From the IMG/VR virus record IMGVR_UViG_2778261570_000018, positions 1 to 13,722 of that record: a DNA stretch of 13,722 bases; one strand, 5' to 3'. This stretch comes from a virus (lineage: Duplodnaviria; Heunggongvirae; Uroviricota; Caudoviricetes). Below are positions 1 to 13,473 of the stretch, piece by piece. The translations under genes were made by a program, and so were the position numbers. The notes below the pieces were generated by a model. The model ran no database searches, was not told where the DNA came from, and worked only from the letters and a program-made list of their open reading frames with translations. Position 1 is the first letter of the stretch. Each line of letters starts with the position of its first letter.

Positions 1-215
1 GTGCTGCGGATGATTTCCTGTCGGTGATTAACCCGGAATCGCTGGTGATCAAACAAGGCTTTGCTGAACCGTCGCTGAAAGAAGCGGTAGCGGGTAAAGC
101 ATTCCAGTTTGAGCGTGAAGGTTATTTCTGCCTCGACAGCCGCCATTCTACGGCGGAAAAACCGGTATTTAACCGCACCGTTGGGCTGCGTGATACCTGG
201 GCGAAGTTAGGTTAA
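1..215 (+). CDS. glnS: 3' end of glutaminyl-tRNA synthetase gene (5'-truncated by window edge; reading frame starts at nt 3)
   Basis: Frame is open from the window start to TAA at 213-215. Translation ...[70 protein letters not shown] matches my recollection of the C-terminal region of enterobacterial GlnRS. The listed ORF start at 24 is an internal GTG, not a real start. Confidence 0.7.
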
Positions 216-240
216 TAGGTATTTCGCCACATGAAAAAGT

Positions 241-266
241 AAACGCCGCTACTGCGGCGTTTTTTA
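241..266. terminator. Rho-independent terminator shared by convergent glnS and the Dam-like gene
   Basis: Stem aaacgccgc (241-249), loop tact, stem gcggcgttt (254-262), followed by a T-run through 265. The minus-strand Dam-like stop codon (264-266) lies in the T-tract. Confidence 0.65.
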
Positions 267-1169
267 CTTCATTATTGCAATTATATCGTTAGCAACTACA
301 CGTGTTGACGCCTTGCAGGAAACCGACCGTCTGGCTGCCATATGATGTACTTTAAACCCGTTTCCTTCATATAGCTCACGGATGTTTGGAGCACCACTAT
401 TTGTTATCACTACCTTAGCGCCGCGCTGGTGGGCATCCACCAACAGTGATACAAGCCGTTTTTGTTCATCGAAACGGAAGCTATTTCCTGAATAGCTGGT
501 AAATCCCTCTGTATCCGGAAGCGGTTCATACGGCGGATCACAAAAAATCACATCGTCTTCACCAGCCGCCTCGATGACGCTAGCAAAGTCTCCTGATACA
601 AAGGAAGTGTTTTTGAGTACGTCATCAGCCAAAAATGCCTCCATCTCTGCATGTGGGAAGTAGGGCGCTTTGTATTTGCCATACCCCACGTTGAACTCGC
701 CATTTTGGTTGTACCGCGTTACGCCATTAAAACAGTGACGATTAAGGTACAAAAATGCGGCAGCATGATGTAGCTGGTCATATTTTCCTCTGTTAAATGC
801 CTCACGCACTTCGAGGTAAGCGTCAGCGTTGTTGTAATTTTTGAAAAAACTATATGACAGCGTGACGAGCGAATGTCCTTCTCGCTGCAATGTCTGATAG
901 AAGTTAATCAGGTCACCGTTAATATCATTAAGCAGGTTGTGGCGAAATCCTGCATTCGTAAATACGGAACCGCCACCAACGAATGGTTCTATTAACCGCT
1001 TACCGTGTGGTAGATGCTCAAGCACTGTAGGCAATTCTGAGAATTTACCACCTACCCATTTGAATATCGGACGCTCATATTCATCCGGAGTCCGAATGGT
1101 GCGCATATAGCTAATTTCAGCCATCGTATCCTGTTTTTCTATGGCTATGCTTGCTATAGATTTACTCAT
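264..1169 (-). CDS. Dam-family N6-adenine DNA methyltransferase (orphan; start codon uncertain, alternatives ATG 1124 or 1106)
   Basis: Translation contains FKWVGGK (AdoMet-binding motif, as in E. coli Dam LKWAGGK), PFVGGGSVF, LYLNR and the catalytic DPPY motif (VIFCDPPYEP). ATG at 1169 is preceded by AAGGGGG and overlaps the upstream gene stop (TATGAGTAA), suggesting translational coupling. Confidence 0.85.
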   Translation of the reverse strand: MSKSIASIAIEKQDTMAEISYMRTIRTPDEYERPIFKWVGGKFSELPTVLEHLPHGKRLIEPFVGGGSVFTNAGFRHNLLNDINGDLINFYQTLQREGHSLVTLSYSFFKNYNNADAYLEVREAFNRGKYDQLHHAAAFLYLNRHCFNGVTRYNQNGEFNVGYGKYKAPYFPHAEMEAFLADDVLKNTSFVSGDFASVIEAAGEDDVIFCDPPYEPLPDTEGFTSYSGNSFRFDEQKRLVSLLVDAHQRGAKVVITNSGAPNIRELYEGNGFKVHHMAARRSVSCKASTRVVANDIIAIMK

Positions 1170-1842
1170 AGAGCACCCCCTTATTCGCTTCGAAAACTGC
1201 CTTTGCGAATCCATGTGGAGTAGCACTTCGAAAATTAGCCCTGTCAGGCCCTGGTGGCGCGGCATGGATTCTGTTATCTGGCTTGCCTAATGATTCGTCC
1301 ATTAGGGCATCAGGCATGACAAAGCCCTGGCCGCTCCAGAGGCATGTTTTTTTGGTGTAGTTATCTTCCTGACAATATGCAGTGAAGAAGTAAGGGTGAA
1401 AGATGTGATCTGGCTTACGCCAGAATGTCGATATTTTGCTGACCGGATTTTCAATCATGTACGGACAACCGATCATCTTTGCAATGTCATAACACTGCCA
1501 GACAACCTGCATTGCTTTGAACTGGAAAACCGGATCTTTATTAGCCTTGTCCGAAAACCAGCGCGCGCCGGAAACAGCCAGGTCAGTACACGGTGGGAAC
1601 CCGGCCAGAAACACGATGCGCTGCAAATTCTTACGGAGAAAAGCGTATACTTCATCGCTATCGATGATCGCACTAATACGCGTCAGAACGGCACCTGATT
1701 GCATCCGCTCGTCACTGGTCGATAAGTGCTGTGGATCGACGATAGCGGCATCGACACCGTATTCCAGCCAGGGGGCAACCATTGCCCCCGTAAAATCACA
1801 AAGACTCACAACAAGCGGTCGGTTATTATCGTTCTGCTTCAC
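1162..1842 (-). CDS. Short DNA C5-cytosine methyltransferase-like protein (about 226 aa; start uncertain, GTG 1842 preferred over ORF-track TTG 1914 and ATG 1782)
   Basis: Ordered motifs with C5-MTase-like spacing: LCDFTGAM (motif I-like), GFPPCTD (PC catalytic Cys motif IV), IENPVS (ENV-like motif VI). GGAGG sits 9 nt upstream of GTG 1842. Starting at 1911/1914 would overlap RdgC by more than 80 nt. Confidence 0.5.
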
Positions 1843-2731
1843 CGCCAATGGCCTCCACCAGCGCGTTAAACAGTGCAGATAATTCGCCCGTAAAGAGCAC
1901 GAAATCAGCATCAAATCGTTGTGCTACATCCTCCCGGTCGATATCGTCGTTCTGGTCATAGAGATCATCACAGAATGTCAGGGCTTTGATACTCATATCA
2001 TCGTTGACTCTGAACGACGCACGGTCCATCCAGTTAATTGCAACGGTCGTAGCTACTTTCCCCGCCTCAATGTGAGACATAATCTCGTCGGACTGTAGAT
2101 CAACTTTGTTGCAGCGAACGGCACCACCATTATCGAGCAGACCCTTTAATGTGGCGTCTTCACCTGCTGTAAATCCGGCAGGGAAGCCGCTTTTAAACCA
2201 CTCGGTCATTGTAATTTCCAGCGGTTCGCGTGGTGTGAATGGAATGACAGGCAGGCTGCCGAGCGACTTTCGCAATAAAGCCAGCTGGTCCTCTGCCTTT
2301 TTGGCGCTGCTTGCCTCAACGAATACCAGATGGTTGCTGCGGTCGATCAGGATTTTGGCGAGTGATTTTCTCGTGAACGCGCGAGGCAAAAGTGAATGCA
2401 GGACTTCATCTTTAAGACTGTCTCTTTCCGTTTTCTTCAGCTTGCGGGCTTGCTCTTCTTCGAGTTTCAGGACTTTTTTCTGCAACTCTTCCTTGAGCAC
2501 CTGCGAGGGGAGAATTTTTTCTTCTCGCTTATGCTGTATTAGCAGAAAACCCTGGTATTCATGGGTGAGGTTGTCACCAAGAACAGGTGTCCAACCGACT
2601 TTAGCTGTGTCCTGAGAACCGCAAGGAGTAAACACGAATTTGCTAAGAGCATCGGATACTTCTGCGGCACTCCAGTTAACTTCACGTGAAAGACGATAGA
2701 TGAAGATGTTTTTGAAAGCGACTGATCTCAT
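1826..2731 (-). CDS. rdgC: RdgC-like recombination-associated DNA-binding protein (extra, island-borne copy)
   Basis: 301 aa, ATG at 2731. Collinear similarity to E. coli RdgC as I recall it ([83 protein letters not shown]-terminal GGEA.R). Confidence 0.85.
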
Positions 2732-2737
2732 GTTTCA

Positions 2738-2781
2738 CCAATTGTGTTAGAAAATTCTATTCAATTATCTAACACAATTGG
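2738..2781. promoter_or_regulatory. Perfect 13-bp inverted repeat with 18-bp AT-rich spacer in the spike-rdgC intergenic region (candidate operator)
   Basis: ccaattgtgttag (2738-2750) and ctaacacaattgg (2769-2781) are exact reverse complements. They lie between the spike-like gene stop (2791) and the rdgC start (2731). No U-tract follows on the transcribed strand, so a terminator is unlikely. Confidence 0.4.
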
Positions 2782-2790
2782 ATGTGTTTT

Positions 2791-3444
2791 CTATCCCTTC
2801 TTGAAATCAAAGTTGCTTGCGATAGCCTGGAAGGTGCCTCCAGCCTTGAAATCAATATTTTCGTCGGCTGTCACAGTAATGTTTTTGCCATTAACGCTGA
2901 TGTTATCGGCTGATTTGACGTTAACACTCCCTCCCGCATTCACTACTACATCAGCCGGACCAATGATGTATATCTGCCCTGATTCATTCATTCCAATCCT
3001 TGAGCCTGCTGCCGTATTCGCTATTTCATATCCACCGCCAGCCGTTCGCACTTCGAGCACATTGTTGCGGTGAATCACGAAATCTTTTGTCGCCGAAAAT
3101 TGCGGGCGGGGAGGCGCTCCGTCTACTTCTGGTGGCGTCCAGCCGCTACCATTGCCTGACGCCTCCGGCGCGACGTTTGGTACTCCGCCAGGCGCATCCT
3201 GAGCTGCGCCAACTATCATTGGGCGTCTGGTATCAATTCGACCATTAACATCCAGATAAGGAAACTCTACCCATACCAGGTCGCCTTTTACTGTAGGTAC
3301 AAAAGCGTTTCCGATGGGTAACAGGTATTCCGCCCAGGGTAGATCGTCATCAGGAACGCCATTCCAGTCAGGTAAAACACGGACTTGAGCACGCATAAGC
3401 CCTGCCGGGTGCACAGTTCCAACAATTTGCGCTCTACGCTTCAT
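2791..3444 (-). CDS. Phage baseplate spike protein, gpV/gp5-like (N-terminal OB-fold plus C-terminal beta-helix-like repeats)
   Basis: N-terminus GLMRAQVRVLPDWNGVPDDDLPWAEYLLPIGNAFVPTVKGDLVWVEFPYLDVNGRIDTRRPMIVGA fits the gpV/gp5/VgrG OB-fold pattern. C-terminus has G/N/V-rich repeats (VVVNAGGSVNVKSADNISVNGKNITVTADENIDFKAGG). The ATG overlaps the upstream stop as ATGA. Confidence 0.55.
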   Translation of the reverse strand: MKRRAQIVGTVHPAGLMRAQVRVLPDWNGVPDDDLPWAEYLLPIGNAFVPTVKGDLVWVEFPYLDVNGRIDTRRPMIVGAAQDAPGGVPNVAPEASGNGSGWTPPEVDGAPPRPQFSATKDFVIHRNNVLEVRTAGGGYEIANTAAGSRIGMNESGQIYIIGPADVVVNAGGSVNVKSADNISVNGKNITVTADENIDFKAGGTFQAIASNFDFKKG

Positions 3445-4421
3445 TTGTTCGGCACTCCCAATATCATTCGTGTTGTGTAGCCTACGCGGTCTTCAAAGTG
3501 CGCAACATTTTTTACTATCAGCTTACGGGGCATTGATTCATCAATGCGGTTTTCCTGGTCATAGCGGTATACGATAATCTCTATCACCATTCCCGGTTTT
3601 ATATCAGGATTGCCTGCGACTTCTATATCCATTTTGGGGACGAGAGACAGCTGCATATTGCGAAGAGTTTCCATATCAGAGTCGGATATATAACGCACTG
3701 GGAGTGAGCTATCGCCATATTCGACGTAGCCATCGGTCATGGAATACCCAACAAAACGATATTGATTCTTTGCTGTTGTCGCATGTTCCTGTTGGAGTAG
3801 GCGCATTTTGGACAAAGTGTATTCTGCTTTAGGGTTATTCCCCTCGTAGGTAAATGATGGCGTTTGCTTCATCAGATCAGCCAGGGTGTAAAAGTTAAAT
3901 TCCCCCCGGCATACCCAACATAATGCACCTTTGTCTCGCGCTATCTCCGAAAGCATTTTTGACGGTTTGTCACCGGCATTCAGATGATATGTAACTGCGC
4001 GTTTTAGCACGCTGCTGGTAATTTTAAGTTTGCCGGAATATGCCTTGAATATAGCGTCTGGTGTTTTGTTGGTATGTAAATTTGTGCGCGGGGAGGGGAT
4101 CTTAAACCTGCGCACGTCTTCACTGACAGCAATAACGGTAACAACATCACCAGCCAGCATTGCAGACGTAACAAAGAAATCTGTTTTAAAAGTGCCTGCA
4201 TTACCGTTTGGATCGCCCATTTCAGCCACCAGCGATGCACCGTATTTGGCTTTCCAGTCATCAATTACGGTGCCGGTAGCGTCATGAATTTCCAGTTTTA
4301 GCAAAGGGGCTTTGAGGCTGGTTTTTTCTACATATACTGCGGTAAAAATCCAGTCTCGTGGCACTTTGTTATCGTTAATGAGCACTGACTGTAGAAAATA
4401 TTGTTGTAACTCCTGGGCCAC
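3441..4421 (-). CDS. Hypothetical protein, 326 aa, in the tail/baseplate-like operon (possible hub-type protein; function not established)
   Basis: Long ORF with GTG start at 4421, 3 nt after the upstream stop, preceded by GGGGTGA. Its stop overlaps the spike gene start (ATGA). No family motif recognised with confidence. Confidence 0.55.
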   Translation of the reverse strand: MAQELQQYFLQSVLINDNKVPRDWIFTAVYVEKTSLKAPLLKLEIHDATGTVIDDWKAKYGASLVAEMGDPNGNAGTFKTDFFVTSAMLAGDVVTVIAVSEDVRRFKIPSPRTNLHTNKTPDAIFKAYSGKLKITSSVLKRAVTYHLNAGDKPSKMLSEIARDKGALCWVCRGEFNFYTLADLMKQTPSFTYEGNNPKAEYTLSKMRLLQQEHATTAKNQYRFVGYSMTDGYVEYGDSSLPVRYISDSDMETLRNMQLSLVPKMDIEVAGNPDIKPGMVIEIIVYRYDQENRIDESMPRKLIVKNVAHFEDRVGYTTRMILGVPNK

Positions 4422-4424
4422 TTA

Positions 4425-5192
4425 TCACCCCATAGATATCGAGGTTTCGGTAATAATACGTTTTGCGTCCAACTCCCATGCTGTGATCACGTCTGCAATC
4501 ACACTTATCGGCGCTTGTGTGGCATAAATACGCTCTTCTCCAATTGGTGCTGAAACATCCGTAAAGCCGACTTCTTTGGCATCCTGTATCGAGCAAATCA
4601 ACGGGACCGGGACACGAACAAGGTGAGTGGTGGCTTCAAATTGTGTACCTGTCATCAGGCGAAGCCGTGCGCCCAGCGAATTACACATCAGACTCATGGT
4701 CGCTTTATCAGTTGCCATTAACGTAACGTCATACGTCAGAATGGCCTGGGTGTATTCCAGTTCTGCTAAAGGCATTCCGGTATCCGGTTCGCAAAAACTG
4801 GCTACTTTTTTGCGGTCAATCTGCTGATCATCGTTGATATAATTGATATCCATAGTGCGTGAGATATTGACCAGGGGGAGAGCATCCCGGTTAATGTTCT
4901 GGTTTTCAGGTTTTCTCCCTTGCCCGGCATTTGCGCGACGAACTGCTTTAAGAAACTCGATCGCATTGTCGAAACGGGCCACATAGACACGCTCTGCTGG
5001 TGGACGATTCAGGAATGACGCAAAGCGTTTTTCTTCCGGCGCGGGGGCCACCAGTAAGATATCAGAAAAAATGTTGCTGATTAGCGTCGCAAACGCGTTA
5101 TCCACGTTTTCAAAGCCCGTGGTCTGGAATTTTCCTGTGCGTGAGGTTTGCCATTCACCTGTTCGCGCCAGGAGGGTTTTATTTGAAGTCAT
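4425..5192 (-). CDS. Hypothetical protein, 255 aa, in the tail/baseplate-like operon
   Basis: ATG at 5192 overlaps the upstream stop (ATGA). Uninterrupted ORF with position in a tightly coupled operon. No recognisable motif. Confidence 0.55.
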   Translation of the reverse strand: MTSNKTLLARTGEWQTSRTGKFQTTGFENVDNAFATLISNIFSDILLVAPAPEEKRFASFLNRPPAERVYVARFDNAIEFLKAVRRANAGQGRKPENQNINRDALPLVNISRTMDINYINDDQQIDRKKVASFCEPDTGMPLAELEYTQAILTYDVTLMATDKATMSLMCNSLGARLRLMTGTQFEATTHLVRVPVPLICSIQDAKEVGFTDVSAPIGEERIYATQAPISVIADVITAWELDAKRIITETSISMG

Positions 5193-6142: not shown

Positions 6143-6445
6143 ATGACCAAAAAAATTAACATAAAGGATTTCAGGGATGCGTGGCTTGATGATTTTTTTG
6201 AATTTTCAACACCACATAGAAAGATACCTCCTGATATTCATATGACATTGTCACGGAAGTTGGACATTATCAATGCCGCAACTACCTGTAATGATTTAAG
6301 ATCACCACCAGGTAATCGGTATGAGGAACTGTCAGGGAAGCTAAATGGCTATTCATCAGTAAGGGTGAATAAGCAATATAGGTTAATTTTTAAGTGGGTT
6401 AACGGAAAGGCCGAGGACTTGTATCTCGACCCTCACAAATACTAA
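6143..6445 (+). CDS. higB: HigB-family toxin (Rts1 HigB / killer-protein type, RelE/ParE superfamily)
   Basis: 100 aa. C-terminal pattern EELSGKLNGYSSVRVNKQYRLIFKWVNGKAEDLYLDPHKY parallels Rts1 HigB (...LKGDREGYWSITVRANWRITFQFINGD..L..EDYH as recalled). Toxin-first gene order with a downstream HTH antitoxin. Confidence 0.8.
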   Translation: MTKKINIKDFRDAWLDDFFEFSTPHRKIPPDIHMTLSRKLDIINAATTCNDLRSPPGNRYEELSGKLNGYSSVRVNKQYRLIFKWVNGKAEDLYLDPHKY

Positions 6446-6515
6446 AACAGATACCCGGTTACGAACCGGGTTCTGACCAGAGTCCACTTAATACGCACGC
6501 TAGTAAGGGCAAAAA

Positions 6516-6854
6516 ATGAAACAGGCAACCAGAAAACCGACGACCGTAGGTGATATCCTGCTGTACGAATACCTGGAGCCGTTAGAGCTGAAGATCAACG
6601 AGTTAGCAGAAATACTTCATGTTCATCGTAACACCGTAAGTGCTCTTGTTAATAATAATCGTAAGCTAACGATGGATATGGCATATCGCCTGGCAAAAGC
6701 ATTCGATACTTCTGTAGATTTTTGGATTAATCTTCAGACCGCAGTAGATCTGTGGGAAGTCGAAAATGATATGCGCGTTCAGGAAGAGTTAAGTCGTATC
6801 AATACTGCTGAAAAATTTATTTCTCAGCGGAACCTGAATAAAAAAGCAGCCTGA
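6516..6854 (+). CDS. higA: HigA-family antitoxin (XRE-type HTH, addiction-module antidote)
   Basis: 112 aa. GDILLYEYLEPLELKINELAEILHVHRNTVSALVNNNRKLTMDMAYRLAKAFDTSVDFWINLQ matches the HigA antidote HTH pattern. TAAGGG is 6 nt upstream of ATG 6516. Confidence 0.8.
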   Translation: MKQATRKPTTVGDILLYEYLEPLELKINELAEILHVHRNTVSALVNNNRKLTMDMAYRLAKAFDTSVDFWINLQTAVDLWEVENDMRVQEELSRINTAEKFISQRNLNKKAA

Positions 6855-6873
6855 TATAGTAAAACACATACAA

Positions 6874-6905
6874 AAAGCCCACTTAGCAAGTGGGCTTTCC
6901 TTTGT
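6874..6905 (+). terminator. Intrinsic terminator after higBA-1
   Basis: Stem aaagcccact (6874-6883), loop tagca, stem agtgggcttt (6889-6898), then cctttgtaatt. Confidence 0.55.
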
Positions 6906-6910
6906 AATTA

Positions 6911-7270
6911 ATGAACATTAAACCCATCCGTACAGAACAAGATTATGAGGCCGCACTGCGTGCGGTCGAACCGATGTTCGATAACGAACCGGAAATGAAT
7001 ACTCCGGAAGGTGATTTCTTTGAGGTTATGAGTCTTCTCATTGAGGAGTACGAGAAAAAACATTACCCAATTGAGCCACCATCACCTATTGAGGCCATTA
7101 AATTCCGTATGGAACAGCAAGGGCTGACCGTGAAGGATCTGGAACCGGCAATTGGTAAGTCAAACCGTGTTTACGAAGTGCTTAATGGGACACGAAATTT
7201 GACGTTACCTATGATTCGTCGTTTACATGCCCAGTTTGGTATTCCACTGGAAAGCCTGGTTGGCGTTTGA
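6911..7270 (+). CDS. Stand-alone HigA-like antitoxin/regulator of the E. coli YgjM (K-12 HigA) type, C-terminal HTH
   Basis: 119 aa. C-terminal GLTVKDLEPAIGKSNRVYEVLNGTRNLTLPMIRRLHAQFGIPLESL parallels K-12 HigA (GLTLSDLPEIGSKSMVSRVLSGKRKLTLEHAKKLATRFGISPALF as recalled). N-terminal EQDYEAALRAVEPMF parallels EEQYTQALELVDHLL. No cognate toxin gene is adjacent. Confidence 0.7.
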   Translation: MNIKPIRTEQDYEAALRAVEPMFDNEPEMNTPEGDFFEVMSLLIEEYEKKHYPIEPPSPIEAIKFRMEQQGLTVKDLEPAIGKSNRVYEVLNGTRNLTLPMIRRLHAQFGIPLESLVGV

Positions 7271-9756: not shown

Positions 9757-10038
9757 TTATGCGTGGAAAAATAATGGACGGATGTTTGGGCGAGCGGTTT
9801 GCGAAGCAACCCAAAGCTCATACTGAGATTGCATACCGGTCCACATTTCGGCACTGGTTCCAAGAGCGGACTCCAGACGAAGTGCCATATCAGCAGAAAT
9901 GCCTGCTTTTTCGTTCAGAATTCGGGAAAGTGCCGTGCGAGTAATGCCTAATGCAGCAGCGGCGTCTGTGACTGACATGTCTCCCAAATATTCACGAAGA
10001 ACCGCGCCAGGATGCGCGGGATTATGCATACGACTCAT
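9757..10038 (-). CDS. higA: HigA-family antitoxin (XRE-type HTH), second module
   Basis: [72 protein letters not shown] parallels Rts1 HigA (HPGE...SRLL..K......[21 protein letters not shown] as recalled). ATG 10038 is preferred, with GAGGAA overlapping the higB-2 stop; the ORF-track start at 10050 is TTG. Confidence 0.8.
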
Positions 10039-10046
10039 AGTGTTCC

Positions 10047-10328
10047 TCAATGATAATCCTGATAGTCAACTAGAATTGCGTCTTCTCCTTCAAATCGGAA
10101 GGTAAGTCGCCAGTTACCGTTTACCGATATTGCCCAGTGACCTTTAAGGTCCGCCCCCTTTAGAGGGTGCAATTCCCATCCAGGCGCAGACATATCGTCC
10201 GGGCGTTTAGCTGTATTAAGAGCAGTCAATTGAATGCGTAGCTTAACCGCATGTTTGGCCTGAATGCCTGCGGTTGAACCTGTCTTGAAAAAGCGTTCAA
10301 GCCCTTTATGGCGAAATGACTTAATCAA
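10047..10328 (-). CDS. higB: HigB-family toxin (Rts1 HigB type), second module; likely TTG start at 10328
   Basis: Translation from TTG 10328 gives [18 protein letters not shown]...[43 protein letters not shown], closely paralleling Rts1 HigB (MIKSFKHKGLKLLFEKG...HPLKGDREGYWSITVRANWRITFQFINGDAYILNYEDYH as recalled). GGATGG lies 7 nt upstream. The ORF-track start at 10391 adds a non-conserved 21-aa extension. Confidence 0.8.
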
Positions 10329-10354
10329 AATAATTCCATCCGTGCGCGTAACCT

Positions 10355-10391
10355 GTGTATATACACTACACGCAGAGGGAGCGAAATGCAA
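10355..10391 (-). promoter_or_regulatory. Candidate higBA-2 promoter with a 12-bp perfect palindrome operator
   Basis: On the minus strand: TTGCAT (plus 10386-10391), 17-bp spacer, TAGTGT (plus 10363-10368). Perfect palindrome GTGTATATACAC (10355-10366) overlaps the -10 and predicted transcription start. Confidence 0.4.
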
Positions 10392-10664: not shown

Positions 10665-11318
10665 TCAAAGTATCACGGTATCTTCATCAACTTCTTTCCC
10701 AGCCAGTGACTTTGGCTGGGAACTGCCTGCTTTAACTTTTTCATGCCCAATAATGGAAAGGAACGAAGTGAGTATGCCTGTTTTTTGCTCTTTCTCGACT
10801 GTACCGGTCATCTGCTCTACGTAATCCGCACTGGCAACGTTGTGGTATACGGTCGCGTAGCAACACAGGATCATCAGAATATGCTCCGGCCTGATATCCT
10901 GCCAGTTCACCCTGTAGACTTCTTCTCCGTTACCGTTGTATTCGGTATCAACGATAGAGTCGGGGATTTCGAAAGCACCTTTGTTATTTTGCGGCAGGGA
11001 TAATAGCTTCTGGAGTTTTAACTCTCTGTATCTTTCCATCCCGACGATGATTGCTGCTCTGCCATCGGCATGACGGGTCTTGAGAGTCACCTGGCTTGCT
11101 CCGGTGCCAGCGGAGATCGTTGGCGTAATTTCGTCTACCAGTACCTTAAATTTGCTTTTCCGCAGGGCTGCTATAGCTGGAGGAATTTTTTGCTTTTGCT
11201 CCAATGCTGACGCGGGAAGGGGTTTTACTTCGTTAATAATGAGAGCACCGTCTTTCAGTATTGCAGTGAGCATTTGAGGCTTGCTGGTGGTCAGGCTGAA
11301 TATTGCGATCTTTTCCAT
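10665..11318 (-). CDS. Hypothetical protein, about 217 aa, unknown function (start ATG 11318)
   Basis: ORF with GGAGAAAGGA immediately upstream of ATG 11318. The ORF-track N-terminal extension to 11360 runs into the terminator hairpin and is not credible. No family recognised. Confidence 0.55.
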   Translation of the reverse strand: MEKIAIFSLTTSKPQMLTAILKDGALIINEVKPLPASALEQKQKIPPAIAALRKSKFKVLVDEITPTISAGTGASQVTLKTRHADGRAAIIVGMERYRELKLQKLLSLPQNNKGAFEIPDSIVDTEYNGNGEEVYRVNWQDIRPEHILMILCCYATVYHNVASADYVEQMTGTVEKEQKTGILTSFLSIIGHEKVKAGSSQPKSLAGKEVDEDTVIL

Positions 11319-11344
11319 TGTCCTTTCTCCACGGATGACGGATA

Positions 11345-11370
11345 CAAAAAAAGGCCGCACATGGCGGCCT
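11345..11370 (-). terminator. Canonical rho-independent terminator on the minus strand, immediately upstream of the RBS of the 217-aa gene
   Basis: Minus-strand RNA: stem aggccgc, loop caugu, stem gcggccu, then seven U (plus 11352-11370 hairpin, A-run 11346-11352). Lies about 25 nt upstream of ATG 11318. Confidence 0.65.
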
Positions 11371-11601
11371 GCTTTGGCGTTATGACTCCCTACCGCGCTT
11401 CGGCTGAAAGTTAATCGTCAAAAGAACCTTCAACGGGAGCCGTTAGCGCGATGGATTATGTGCAGTTTGTGATTTCCAAAATAGTGTCAACTACTTTTTG
11501 TGGATTTTATTTTTTGTCCGAAATTTGGCCTAAATCATGTTGATTTGGCTGATTATTTTTATAACATAAAACTTCATTTTGTTTACATGAAGGACGGTGT
11601 A

Positions 11602-12216
11602 GTGAAGTTAAGGGTTTTAGGGACCGCGCTCGCGGCTATGTTGGGATGCGTATCTGTTAATACTGCCAATGCAACTGCGTTACCTGCAAAGTATTGGGCT
11701 GGTGTGAAAGTGTTGCGGAACGCTGAAAAAGGCAATACAGCTGATGATATTTTCAAGTTTTGCCAAAAAGAAAATATCCCTCTGCACCCGGTTGAGCCGT
11801 ACTTTACAGGAAAGAATGATTTCTGTGTGTTTGCGTATACCGCAGACCAAACAGATAAGGCTATACGCAAGACAGGGTATTCTACTCAAGACACTATGGC
11901 GTCCTTAAGTAAAAACTGGTTGCAGTTTGAGGTTTACCGTAGTGAAGGAATGGGAGAGCTATTGCAGCCACTGTATATGCTGGCGTTAGTTCCGGAAGGG
12001 CAGCAGTTCCTTATTCGAAAAGGAATGCTTCGGAAAAGCGATGTAACCGGATTCAATAACACGATGGAGCTTGAACGCTCAATGAAGCAAAAGCAAGCGC
12101 CTAAGCAGCCAACAGCCGAATGTATTAGCAGCGAGATACAAAAGGCATTAAGCGAGCAGCCTTACATTGATCGTGGTGTGGCGGAAATGGCTGCCAAAAT
12201 GAAGTGTTCCAATTAA
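11602..12216 (+). CDS. Hypothetical secreted/periplasmic protein with N-terminal signal peptide (start GTG 11602; alternative ATG 11587)
   Basis: AAGGA (11590-11594) is 7 nt upstream of GTG 11602. N-terminus MKLRVLGTALAAMLGCVSVNTANA is a typical signal peptide (ANA cleavage site or a weak lipobox). Mature part contains several Cys. The ORF-track start at 11500 lacks an RBS. Confidence 0.55.
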   Translation: MKLRVLGTALAAMLGCVSVNTANATALPAKYWAGVKVLRNAEKGNTADDIFKFCQKENIPLHPVEPYFTGKNDFCVFAYTADQTDKAIRKTGYSTQDTMASLSKNWLQFEVYRSEGMGELLQPLYMLALVPEGQQFLIRKGMLRKSDVTGFNNTMELERSMKQKQAPKQPTAECISSEIQKALSEQPYIDRGVAEMAAKMKCSN

Positions 12217-12259
12217 CGTCAAATAGAATAACAAGATAGTAAATTTTGGAGTTAATGAA

Positions 12260-13081
12260 ATGTTCTTTATGAAAAATGGAAAAAGATTTTCCGCAACAAT
12301 GCTTGCTACTATTGTCGCTCTTTTCGTTCCCACATTCACCTTTGCTTATGATTTTAGCAAAATTGACTGCAATGCCCCTAAAACCAGGCAGATGTTAATC
12401 GATGATTATAATGAACTACTCAAGGACGATCAGGAAGCAATCACTGTAATTGATGCTTATAATCAGATTAATGAAATAAGCGAAAAAAGTAAGCTCCAAT
12501 GTTTAGGCACGTATGAGTTCTCAGATGGAAGTGCGCTTAGAGTTAGATATAAGTTATATTTAAATAGCCTCGGCACACCCATATATGAATTTGCTCCAGT
12601 TGAGGAATTAACGCAGGATGATGTAAGCGCATCTATTCAAAATATCCCTGCAACCACAGCGAGTAGGACTGGGGGGAATGAAGAAACGTATGCCTGCAAG
12701 GTGGCTGTAACTTACAAGGGGGAGCGTTCTAACTATATGGGGGATTCCGGAACATGGGATCGTGTGATTACTGACTATGGCACTTATTTTTCATGGGATT
12801 TACCACGCGGAAACCGAGGCAACAGCACAGGTCAGGATGCTTTTAGTGGCATGGACGAATCAAAGCCTGTATTAGAAAATCAGCTAGTGAGAAAGGAAAC
12901 TGAAAAAGATGGTAGCGTGGTTGATGAGTTTAGGACAGAAGTGAGTTATGGAGATAAACAACCGGTACATAAGTTTGTATATGCCCGTAGAATAAAACCT
13001 ACAGGAACGAGAGAATATTATGTCACTGATTTGACGGACAAGCGGGCATTTATGTTTCTGAATTGCCAGCAAGATTCGTAA
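12260..13081 (+). CDS. Hypothetical secreted protein with N-terminal signal peptide
   Basis: GGAG is 8 nt upstream of ATG 12260. N-terminus MFFMKNGKRFSATMLATIVALFVPTFTFA. AT-rich coding region, 43 nt downstream of the preceding gene (likely co-transcribed). Confidence 0.6.
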   Translation: MFFMKNGKRFSATMLATIVALFVPTFTFAYDFSKIDCNAPKTRQMLIDDYNELLKDDQEAITVIDAYNQINEISEKSKLQCLGTYEFSDGSALRVRYKLYLNSLGTPIYEFAPVEELTQDDVSASIQNIPATTASRTGGNEETYACKVAVTYKGERSNYMGDSGTWDRVITDYGTYFSWDLPRGNRGNSTGQDAFSGMDESKPVLENQLVRKETEKDGSVVDEFRTEVSYGDKQPVHKFVYARRIKPTGTREYYVTDLTDKRAFMFLNCQQDS

Positions 13082-13086
13082 TTGAT

Positions 13087-13124
13087 AAAGCAGGCTTAAC
13101 GACTAAGCCTGCTTTTTGAATTTT
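13087..13124 (+). terminator. Intrinsic terminator after the secreted-protein operon (also abuts the stop of the convergent membrane-protein gene)
   Basis: 11-bp perfect stem aaagcaggctt (13087-13097) / aagcctgcttt (13105-13115), 7-nt loop, then tttttgaatttt. Confidence 0.6.
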
Positions 13125-13473
13125 ACTCGGTAATAGTTTTGCAGTTGTTTTGGTTTAAGACCAATCCAAGTTTGCTGGCGGCCAACTCATTTTCTGTGTG
13201 AGAGCCAGCAAATACAAATCCTTGTTTTATCTTATTTACGGTGAAATATTTATTGTATATAAATGCCCAGACAAGTGAAGCTACCCAAGGACCAATTCCT
13301 GCAGTGAGGAATGCCAGGATTAGCATCACAACGAACACCCCGATGAAAGTTATAAAGTCTTTCCTGAACAAAGCCGGGAAGGCACCAAAAAAGAACGTAG
13401 TCCAGGAGAATCCATAAAAGCCTGAGATGGACTCGCCTGTCCGAGGATTTTCTAAGTTAATTTTAGTAGCCAA
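13123..13473 (-). CDS. Small inner-membrane protein (116 aa, two predicted TM segments), TTG start
   Basis: Hydrophobic stretches FYGFSWTTFFFGAFPALF and FIGVFVVMLILAFLTAGIGPWVASLVWAFIY. AAAGGA is 9 nt upstream of TTG 13473. No in-frame ATG is available near the N-terminus. Confidence 0.55.
   Translation of the reverse strand: MATKINLENPRTGESISGFYGFSWTTFFFGAFPALFRKDFITFIGVFVVMLILAFLTAGIGPWVASLVWAFIYNKYFTVNKIKQGFVFAGSHTENELAASKLGLVLNQNNCKTITE

Follow-up and report, generated by a model that had tools for sequence, protein, structure and literature searches.

A short Dcm-like protein, probably an orphan cytosine-C5 methyltransferase, encoded between rdgC and dam in a D6-like phage-plasmid

Can a protein of 226 residues, with Thr and Pro at two hallmark positions of the cytosine-C5 methyltransferases (C5-MTases), still methylate DNA? 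This question is raised by an open reading frame in a 13,722-nucleotide stretch of viral DNA (hereafter the window, to which coordinates refer unless a locus is named). In the initial annotation, the product was described as an unusually short C5-MTase-like protein that could be minimal, inactive, or a different nucleobase-modifying enzyme. Here, its gene context, family, relation to canonical enzymes, and closest characterised relative were analysed.

The gene, its start codon, and its operon

Positions 1–5000 of the window were 96.2% identical at the nucleotide level to Escherichia phage D6, a P1-like phage-plasmid, and positions 200–2800 were 100% identical to ~90-kb E. coli plasmids, e.g., pLD93-1-90kb. 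Related sequence was plasmid-borne in 101 of 5,426 complete E. coli genomes (about 2%) and was found on no chromosome in the same 5,426 genomes. Nearby open reading frames correspond to baseplate and tail genes of the P1/D6 type, toxin-antitoxin modules, and the 3′ end of a phage-borne glnS. By its sequence, the window is assigned to a D6-like E. coli phage-plasmid. The features around the gene are as follows.

1826–2731, minus strand: rdgC/hrdC homologue, first gene of the operon (PF04381, 5e-103; D6 orf65, P1 hrdC-like)
1162–1842, minus strand: coding sequence of the putative Dcm-like minimal C5-cytosine DNA methyltransferase, 226 aa, GTG start (open reading frame; D6 orf64; PHROG 757)
264–1169, minus strand: Dam-family N6-adenine methyltransferase gene, last gene of the operon (PF02086, 7e-57; TIGR00571, 2e-74; D6 orf63)
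1852–1856, minus strand: Shine-Dalgarno sequence GGAGG, 9 nt upstream of GTG 1842 and within the 3′ end of rdgC (read from the sequence)
2764–2793, minus strand: candidate sigma-70-like promoter upstream of rdgC, TAGAAA-18-GATAAT (consensus scan only)
241–262, no strand assigned: bidirectional intrinsic-terminator-like hairpin between the dam and glnS stop codons (9-bp stem with 6 GC pairs, T-runs on both strands)

The dcm-like open reading frame ends at a TAA codon (1164–1162, minus strand) and has three candidate starts: TTG 1914 (250 aa), GTG 1842 (226 aa), and ATG 1782 (206 aa). The three-way ambiguity pointed out in the initial annotation is real, since public annotations conflict (GTG 1842 in D6 GenBank, ATG 1782 in RefSeq/PGAP). 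The evidence favours GTG 1842, because GGAGG is located 9 nt upstream, the D6 record has the same start, and homologues start near the LCDxTG motif I (residues 14–19). Homologous proteins begin 5–9 residues ahead of this conserved motif, and the GTG start would place 13 residues ahead of it, near the same point. The ATG start is disfavoured because strand beta1 and motif I would be lost, and the TTG because it lies deep in rdgC (89 nt within the gene).

The D6 product (orf64, ASR76422.1, "putative DNA-cytosine methylase") shared 99.6% amino acid identity with the window protein. It is an orthologue with matching coordinates relative to rdgC and dam, likewise has a GTG start, and shows no substantial difference. 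In the matching E. coli plasmid records listed, the RefSeq name of the gene was "hypothetical protein". In the one RefSeq record inspected, NZ_CP047663.1, the dcm-like gene begins at ATG 1782 (window 1162–1782; locus 12163–12783; 206 aa), and the adjacent Dam gene (window 264–1103; locus 11265–12104) is flagged as an incomplete pseudogene with a missing N-terminus. In D6 GenBank, Dam is intact (301 aa, from ATG 1169). Our guess is that the PGAP flag comes from a comparison with longer Dmt-type fusions.

Neighbouring genes overlap: rdgC runs 17 nt into the dcm-like gene, and the dam ATG overlaps the dcm-like stop by 8 nt (ATGAGTAA). From this layout, rdgC, dcm-like, and dam, in that order, are read as a translationally coupled operon. 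The promoter candidate upstream of rdgC is weak, since the number of sites in the scan was no higher than the chance expectation. The 59-nt gap upstream of rdgC (window 2735–2800, minus strand) holds this promoter-like site and two AACACAATTG-like copies, which make an inverted repeat (AACACATCCAATTGTGTT ... CTAACACAATTGGTG). By analogy, the repeat could be a repressor operator like the C1 operator at P1 Pdmt. At the other end, the glnS 3′ end (window 24–215, plus strand, running on upstream of the window; phage-plasmid glutaminyl-tRNA synthetase, D6 orf62) converges on dam, and the two genes share the terminator-like hairpin at 241–262.

Motifs, family, and distance from canonical enzymes

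The motifs of the protein were located by conservation, profile alignment, and a structural model, as follows.

1786–1803, minus strand: LCDFTG (residues 14–19), motif I equivalent, predicted SAM-binding loop after strand beta1 (conservation, hhalign, model)
1585–1599, minus strand: FPPCT (residues 82–86), motif IV equivalent with the presumed nucleophile Cys85 (C85 invariant; hhalign to PCQ)
1444–1452, minus strand: ENP (residues 131–133), motif VI equivalent with Glu131 as the presumed N3-protonating residue (conservation; hhalign to ENV)
1336–1359, minus strand: YTKKTCLW (residues 162–169), family signature on strand beta7, at the motif VIII (QxRxR) position (conservation, model)
1231–1329, minus strand: short variable segment (residues 172–204) at the position of the target-recognition domain (TRD; low conservation, mostly coil in the model)
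1207–1230, minus strand: RSATPHGF (residues 205–212), motif-IX-like element leading into the C-terminal helix (at least 90% conservation; model)

The two substitutions that had drawn attention to the protein, FPPCT for PCQ (window 1599–1585) and ENP for ENV (window 1452–1444), were read directly. The Pro-Cys of motif IV is present and followed by Thr, not Gln, and the Val-to-Pro change in motif VI is family-wide. In motif I, L14, C15, D16, T18, and G19 were at least 90% conserved in a shallow family alignment. LCDFTG was aligned by hhalign with the canonical lFsGiG, and only one Gly is kept compared with FxGxG. The model has a strand (E10–14) before LCDFTG, a strand (E166–171, beta7) that carries YTKKTCLW, and a helix (H210–224) at the C-terminus, and its closest structural matches were C5-MTases (class I MTase fold). 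In our own reading, RSATPHGF resembles the canonical RxLTPxE; this likeness was not detected by hhalign.

The protein is no isolated oddity: besides being annotated as D6 orf64, it matched phrog_757 ("DNA methyltransferase") with an E-value of 4.3e-78, residues 2–224 being aligned to profile positions 8–222 of 247. With tblastn, 1,580 phage records contained homologues, among them Drexlerviridae, dhillonviruses, and 136–151-kb Escherichia and Cronobacter phages. A word-indexed protein search returned more than 7,900 proteins of ~215–235 aa; the best 120 of these had no Pfam domain on the dcm-like protein and were mostly named "hypothetical protein". When 1.84 billion cluster representatives were searched exhaustively with a profile, 2,633 clusters (50% identity) were retrieved at E ≤ 1e-3, with lengths of ~200–260 aa save for a few fusions. 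The gene is thus not new. The unusually small phage "Dcm-like" methyltransferases to which it belongs are a large family that had been recognised before, and the classification was already made by the D6 annotators and PHROGs; one member of the family has been characterised. The minimal architecture is found mainly in phages and prophages.

Conservation was scored in an alignment of 75 homologues that were 32–50% identical to the window protein. C85, E131, P133, K164, T166, and W169 were invariant (75/75), and F82, P83, N132, R205, S206, T208, P209, G211, and F212 were at least 90% conserved. The family consensus thus reads PPCT and ENP, and neither is a sign of decay. The shortness noted in the initial annotation also holds and is a property of the family: the window protein is a single domain of 226 aa, and homologues ranged from 202 to 249 aa (median 221). 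The same applies to the lack of an obvious TRD, as the segment at its position (W169/P177 to R205) was 23–69 aa long (median 27) and poorly conserved.

In many phage homologues, only residues 78–220 were covered by tblastn. N-terminal truncation was rejected in the two that were checked, Shfl1 and KLPN1: with genes of 705 bp, they differ only in a more divergent N-terminus. A few family members are fused to far larger proteins (563 aa, 548 aa, and the BFVD entries A0A6J5NPY6, 1126 aa, and A0A6J5SE15, 1397 aa), one of which is annotated as Helicase/UvrB N-terminal. This suggests that the minimal MTase module is sometimes part of bigger DNA-processing enzymes.

Canonical C5-MTases (PF00145; E. 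coli Dcm, M.HhaI, M.HaeIII) carry PCQ and ENV, whereas the dcm-like protein carries PPCT and ENP. PF00145 (gathering threshold 22 bits) gave no match to the protein even at E ≤ 10, the NCBIfam scan gave none either, and a phmmer search and two profile hmmsearches against PDB sequences returned nothing significant. The KarlJaspers homologue (see below) scored 11.1 bits against PF00145 (E 0.27).

For profile comparison, the canonical set comprised eight phage proteins, all PF00145 members. With the shallow family alignment (Neff 2.1), the hhalign probability was only 5%. With a diverse alignment, made from representatives of 50%-identity clusters, it was 91.5% (E 8.5e-7) over residues 7–138, with LCDxTG/FsGiG, FPPCT/PCQ, and ENP/ENV all in register. 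Only motifs I–VI were linked to the canonical enzymes in this way; residues 139–226 showed no similarity to motifs VIII–X by hhalign. At motif VIII, the canonical set has an invariant RxR and the dcm-like protein has YTKKTCLW with the invariant K164. No motif X (GNAV) was recognisable in the protein. The distance from motif VIII to motif X was 130–265 aa in the sampled canonical phage enzymes, compared with ~27 aa at the TRD position of the dcm-like family, and the protein is ~100 residues shorter overall than canonical C5-MTases. The description as a divergent C5-MTase-like protein was borne out by these results together with the structural matches: neither a full-length alignment to canonical Dcm nor a better match to a non-MTase family was obtained.

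In the Mycobacterium phage Ovechkin, gp69 (locus 1495–2205; 236 aa) matches positions 1–167 of 324 of PF00145 only. After it comes gp70 (locus 2288–3109), also a "DNA methyltransferase" gene. This arrangement would fit a canonical C5-MTase that has been split or truncated, i.e., a different route to a short C5-MTase.

Activity and alternative readings

The characterised family member is encoded by phage KarlJaspers. In strain K42, a 711-bp "Dcm-like C5 cytosine methyltransferase" gene was identified as the trigger of retron Ec86 (Eco1) (Wang et al., bioRxiv 10.1101/2023.08.16.553469; Cell Rep 2024;43:114857). When K42 Dcm was expressed, 5mC on msDNA rose, as measured by LC-MS, and the retron was activated, and a C82A/E128A/K175A/K176A mutant produced neither effect (10.1101/2023.08.16.553469). 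The CCWGG specificity given for K42 Dcm was borrowed from E. coli Dcm and is backed only by mutation of the msDNA motif, the methylated positions being unmapped (10.1101/2023.08.16.553469).

In BLASTP, KarlJaspers (Bas06) bas06_0055 was aligned with the window protein from end to end, at 37% identity (E 2e-41). C82, E128, K175, and K176, the positions changed in the K42 mutant, pair with C85, E131, K164, and K165 in this alignment, and all four are conserved; the cysteine belongs to PPC, the glutamate to ENP, and the two lysines to YxKKTC. The two proteins (236 and 226 aa) have a common family and architecture, and RSxTPxGFAxAVFEAN is found in both. The KarlJaspers gene, too, stands alone in its phage genome, which also encodes a Dam. 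However, KarlJaspers is a virulent siphovirus (Drexlerviridae) and not a phage-plasmid, and its gene adjoins neither dam nor rdgC. Its protein also has a 14-residue insertion ahead of the YxKKTC strand and a TRD-position segment of different sequence, so the specificity of the D6-type enzyme could differ from that of KarlJaspers.

On these sequence comparisons and the analogy with K42 Dcm, the dcm-like protein is likely to be an active stand-alone (orphan), minimal SAM-dependent DNA cytosine-C5 methyltransferase. The N-terminal ~140 residues form a Rossmann-type core, with predicted SAM-binding and catalytic functions, that comprises LCDFTG, the acidic residue D36 at the end of beta2, FPPC, and ENP. 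The mechanism of M.HhaI-type C5-MTases is established. By analogy with it, Cys85 would attack C6 of a flipped-out cytosine, Glu131 would protonate N3, the methyl group would move from SAM to C5, and beta-elimination would free the enzyme. The C-terminal ~85 residues are family-specific, with the invariant Lys164 of the YTKKTCLW strand in place of the motif VIII arginines, followed by the ~27-residue segment at the TRD position, RSATPxGF, and a terminal helix.

Three other readings were weighed against this. Loss of catalysis, e.g., a DNA-binding or regulatory remnant kept for a non-enzymatic role, would fit the non-canonical motifs (PPCT, ENP, no QxRxR, no GNAV), the missing Pfam and NCBIfam matches, and the very small size. 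However, the Cys, Glu, and Lys presumed to be catalytic do not vary among 75 sequences that are 32–50% identical to the window protein, the family is very large with little spread in length, and the effects of the K42 homologue were lost on mutation of exactly the equivalent residues, which makes an inactive protein very improbable. Somewhat less improbable, though still not expected, is that the C5-MTase fold and chemistry serve another substrate (single-stranded or hairpin DNA, or RNA as in Dnmt2) or transfer another group. E. coli makes CxSAM, from which a carboxymethyl group could come. Against this reading, 5mC rose with the wild-type K42 homologue, the pairing with Dam in the slot of the P1 Dmt C5 module fits modification of double-stranded phage DNA, and the structural likeness to 8yf3 was no stronger than that to DNMT3B or 3g7u. 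The papers retrieved on DNA carboxymethyltransferases dealt only with engineered enzymes or applications, and none was linked to the short Dcm-like family.

If the protein were only a catalytic subunit and, as in the two-subunit M.AquI, relied on a specificity or TRD partner encoded by a separate gene, the lack of a TRD-sized segment would be explained, and phages appear to encode split or truncated enzymes of the canonical type (Ovechkin gp69). No conserved partner or specificity-subunit gene was found, however, in homologue neighbourhoods across D6, Drexlerviridae, Pseudomonas, and Agrobacterium prophage contexts, which argues against a split enzyme; the Pseudomonas and Agrobacterium homologues were situated amid prophage recombination and replication genes. 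Moreover, plasmid expression of the K42 homologue by itself was enough for activity, and the C-terminus has its own conserved closing elements (RSATPxGF and the helix), so that this is the least probable of the readings considered. Of the options offered in the initial annotation, "minimal" was retained, and "inactive" and "different nucleobase-modifying enzyme" are disfavoured, because the catalytic Cys, Glu, and Lys are invariant and 5mC formation by the K42 homologue depends on them.

For an active minimal methyltransferase, a bolder proposal is that the family is a distinct C5-MTase architecture. Given the ~27-residue segment at the TRD position, its specificity could be very relaxed or very short, or it could prefer single-stranded or hairpin DNA, in contrast to the CCWGG recognition assumed in the literature. 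We regard this as possible but rather doubtful. If true, the enzyme would serve as a broad-spectrum anti-restriction hypermethylase, and methylation-sensing defences would be widely triggered by it.

Possible role and wider setting

In P1, the corresponding genes form the C1-controlled operon uhr-hrdC-dmt. In both P1 and the window, cytosine-MTase and Dam functions are encoded after hrdC (RdgC family), and the Dam parts are homologous. P1 Dmt is, however, bifunctional, with a canonical PF00145 domain fused to a Dam domain. Homology of the dcm-like protein to the N-terminal half of P1 Dmt (residues 1–440) was rejected, the best BLASTP E-value being 2.9. Compared at the sequence level, the dcm-like protein and the P1 C5 module look like a non-orthologous replacement at one operon position. 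The P1-like operon slot supports a role in DNA modification alongside Dam. The enzyme would probably modify the phage-plasmid DNA together with Dam, either against host restriction or for DNA transactions of the lytic cycle. In the BASEL paper, no simple link was found between such methyltransferase genes and resistance to restriction.

D6-like phage-plasmids may interact with methylation-sensing defences and Mcr-type restriction, as a related enzyme is encoded next to Dam and its homologue triggers retron Ec86/Eco1. For annotation, it matters that the short Dcm-like family is missed by both Pfam PF00145 and NCBIfam, and that the RefSeq start in the one record inspected deletes motif I. For enzymology, ~220 residues would be close to the minimum for a C5-MTase.

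Elsewhere in the window, a second HigB-like toxin (PF05015) and an HTH antitoxin are encoded at 9757–10391 (minus strand), between homologues of P1 gene 26 and mat. In D6, the same interval is only ~330 nt and contains two tiny open reading frames, so the window seems to carry this toxin-antitoxin module as an insertion of ~0.7 kb with respect to D6. A further HigB/HigA pair, with an extra HTH protein, is located at 6143–7270. At 11500–13473, there are three open reading frames without a Pfam match (238, 273, and 116 aa, the 116-aa one on the minus strand), and the N-termini of the 238- and 273-aa products are signal-peptide-like. In the D6 annotation, a simB-like gene lies ~280 nt downstream of mat.
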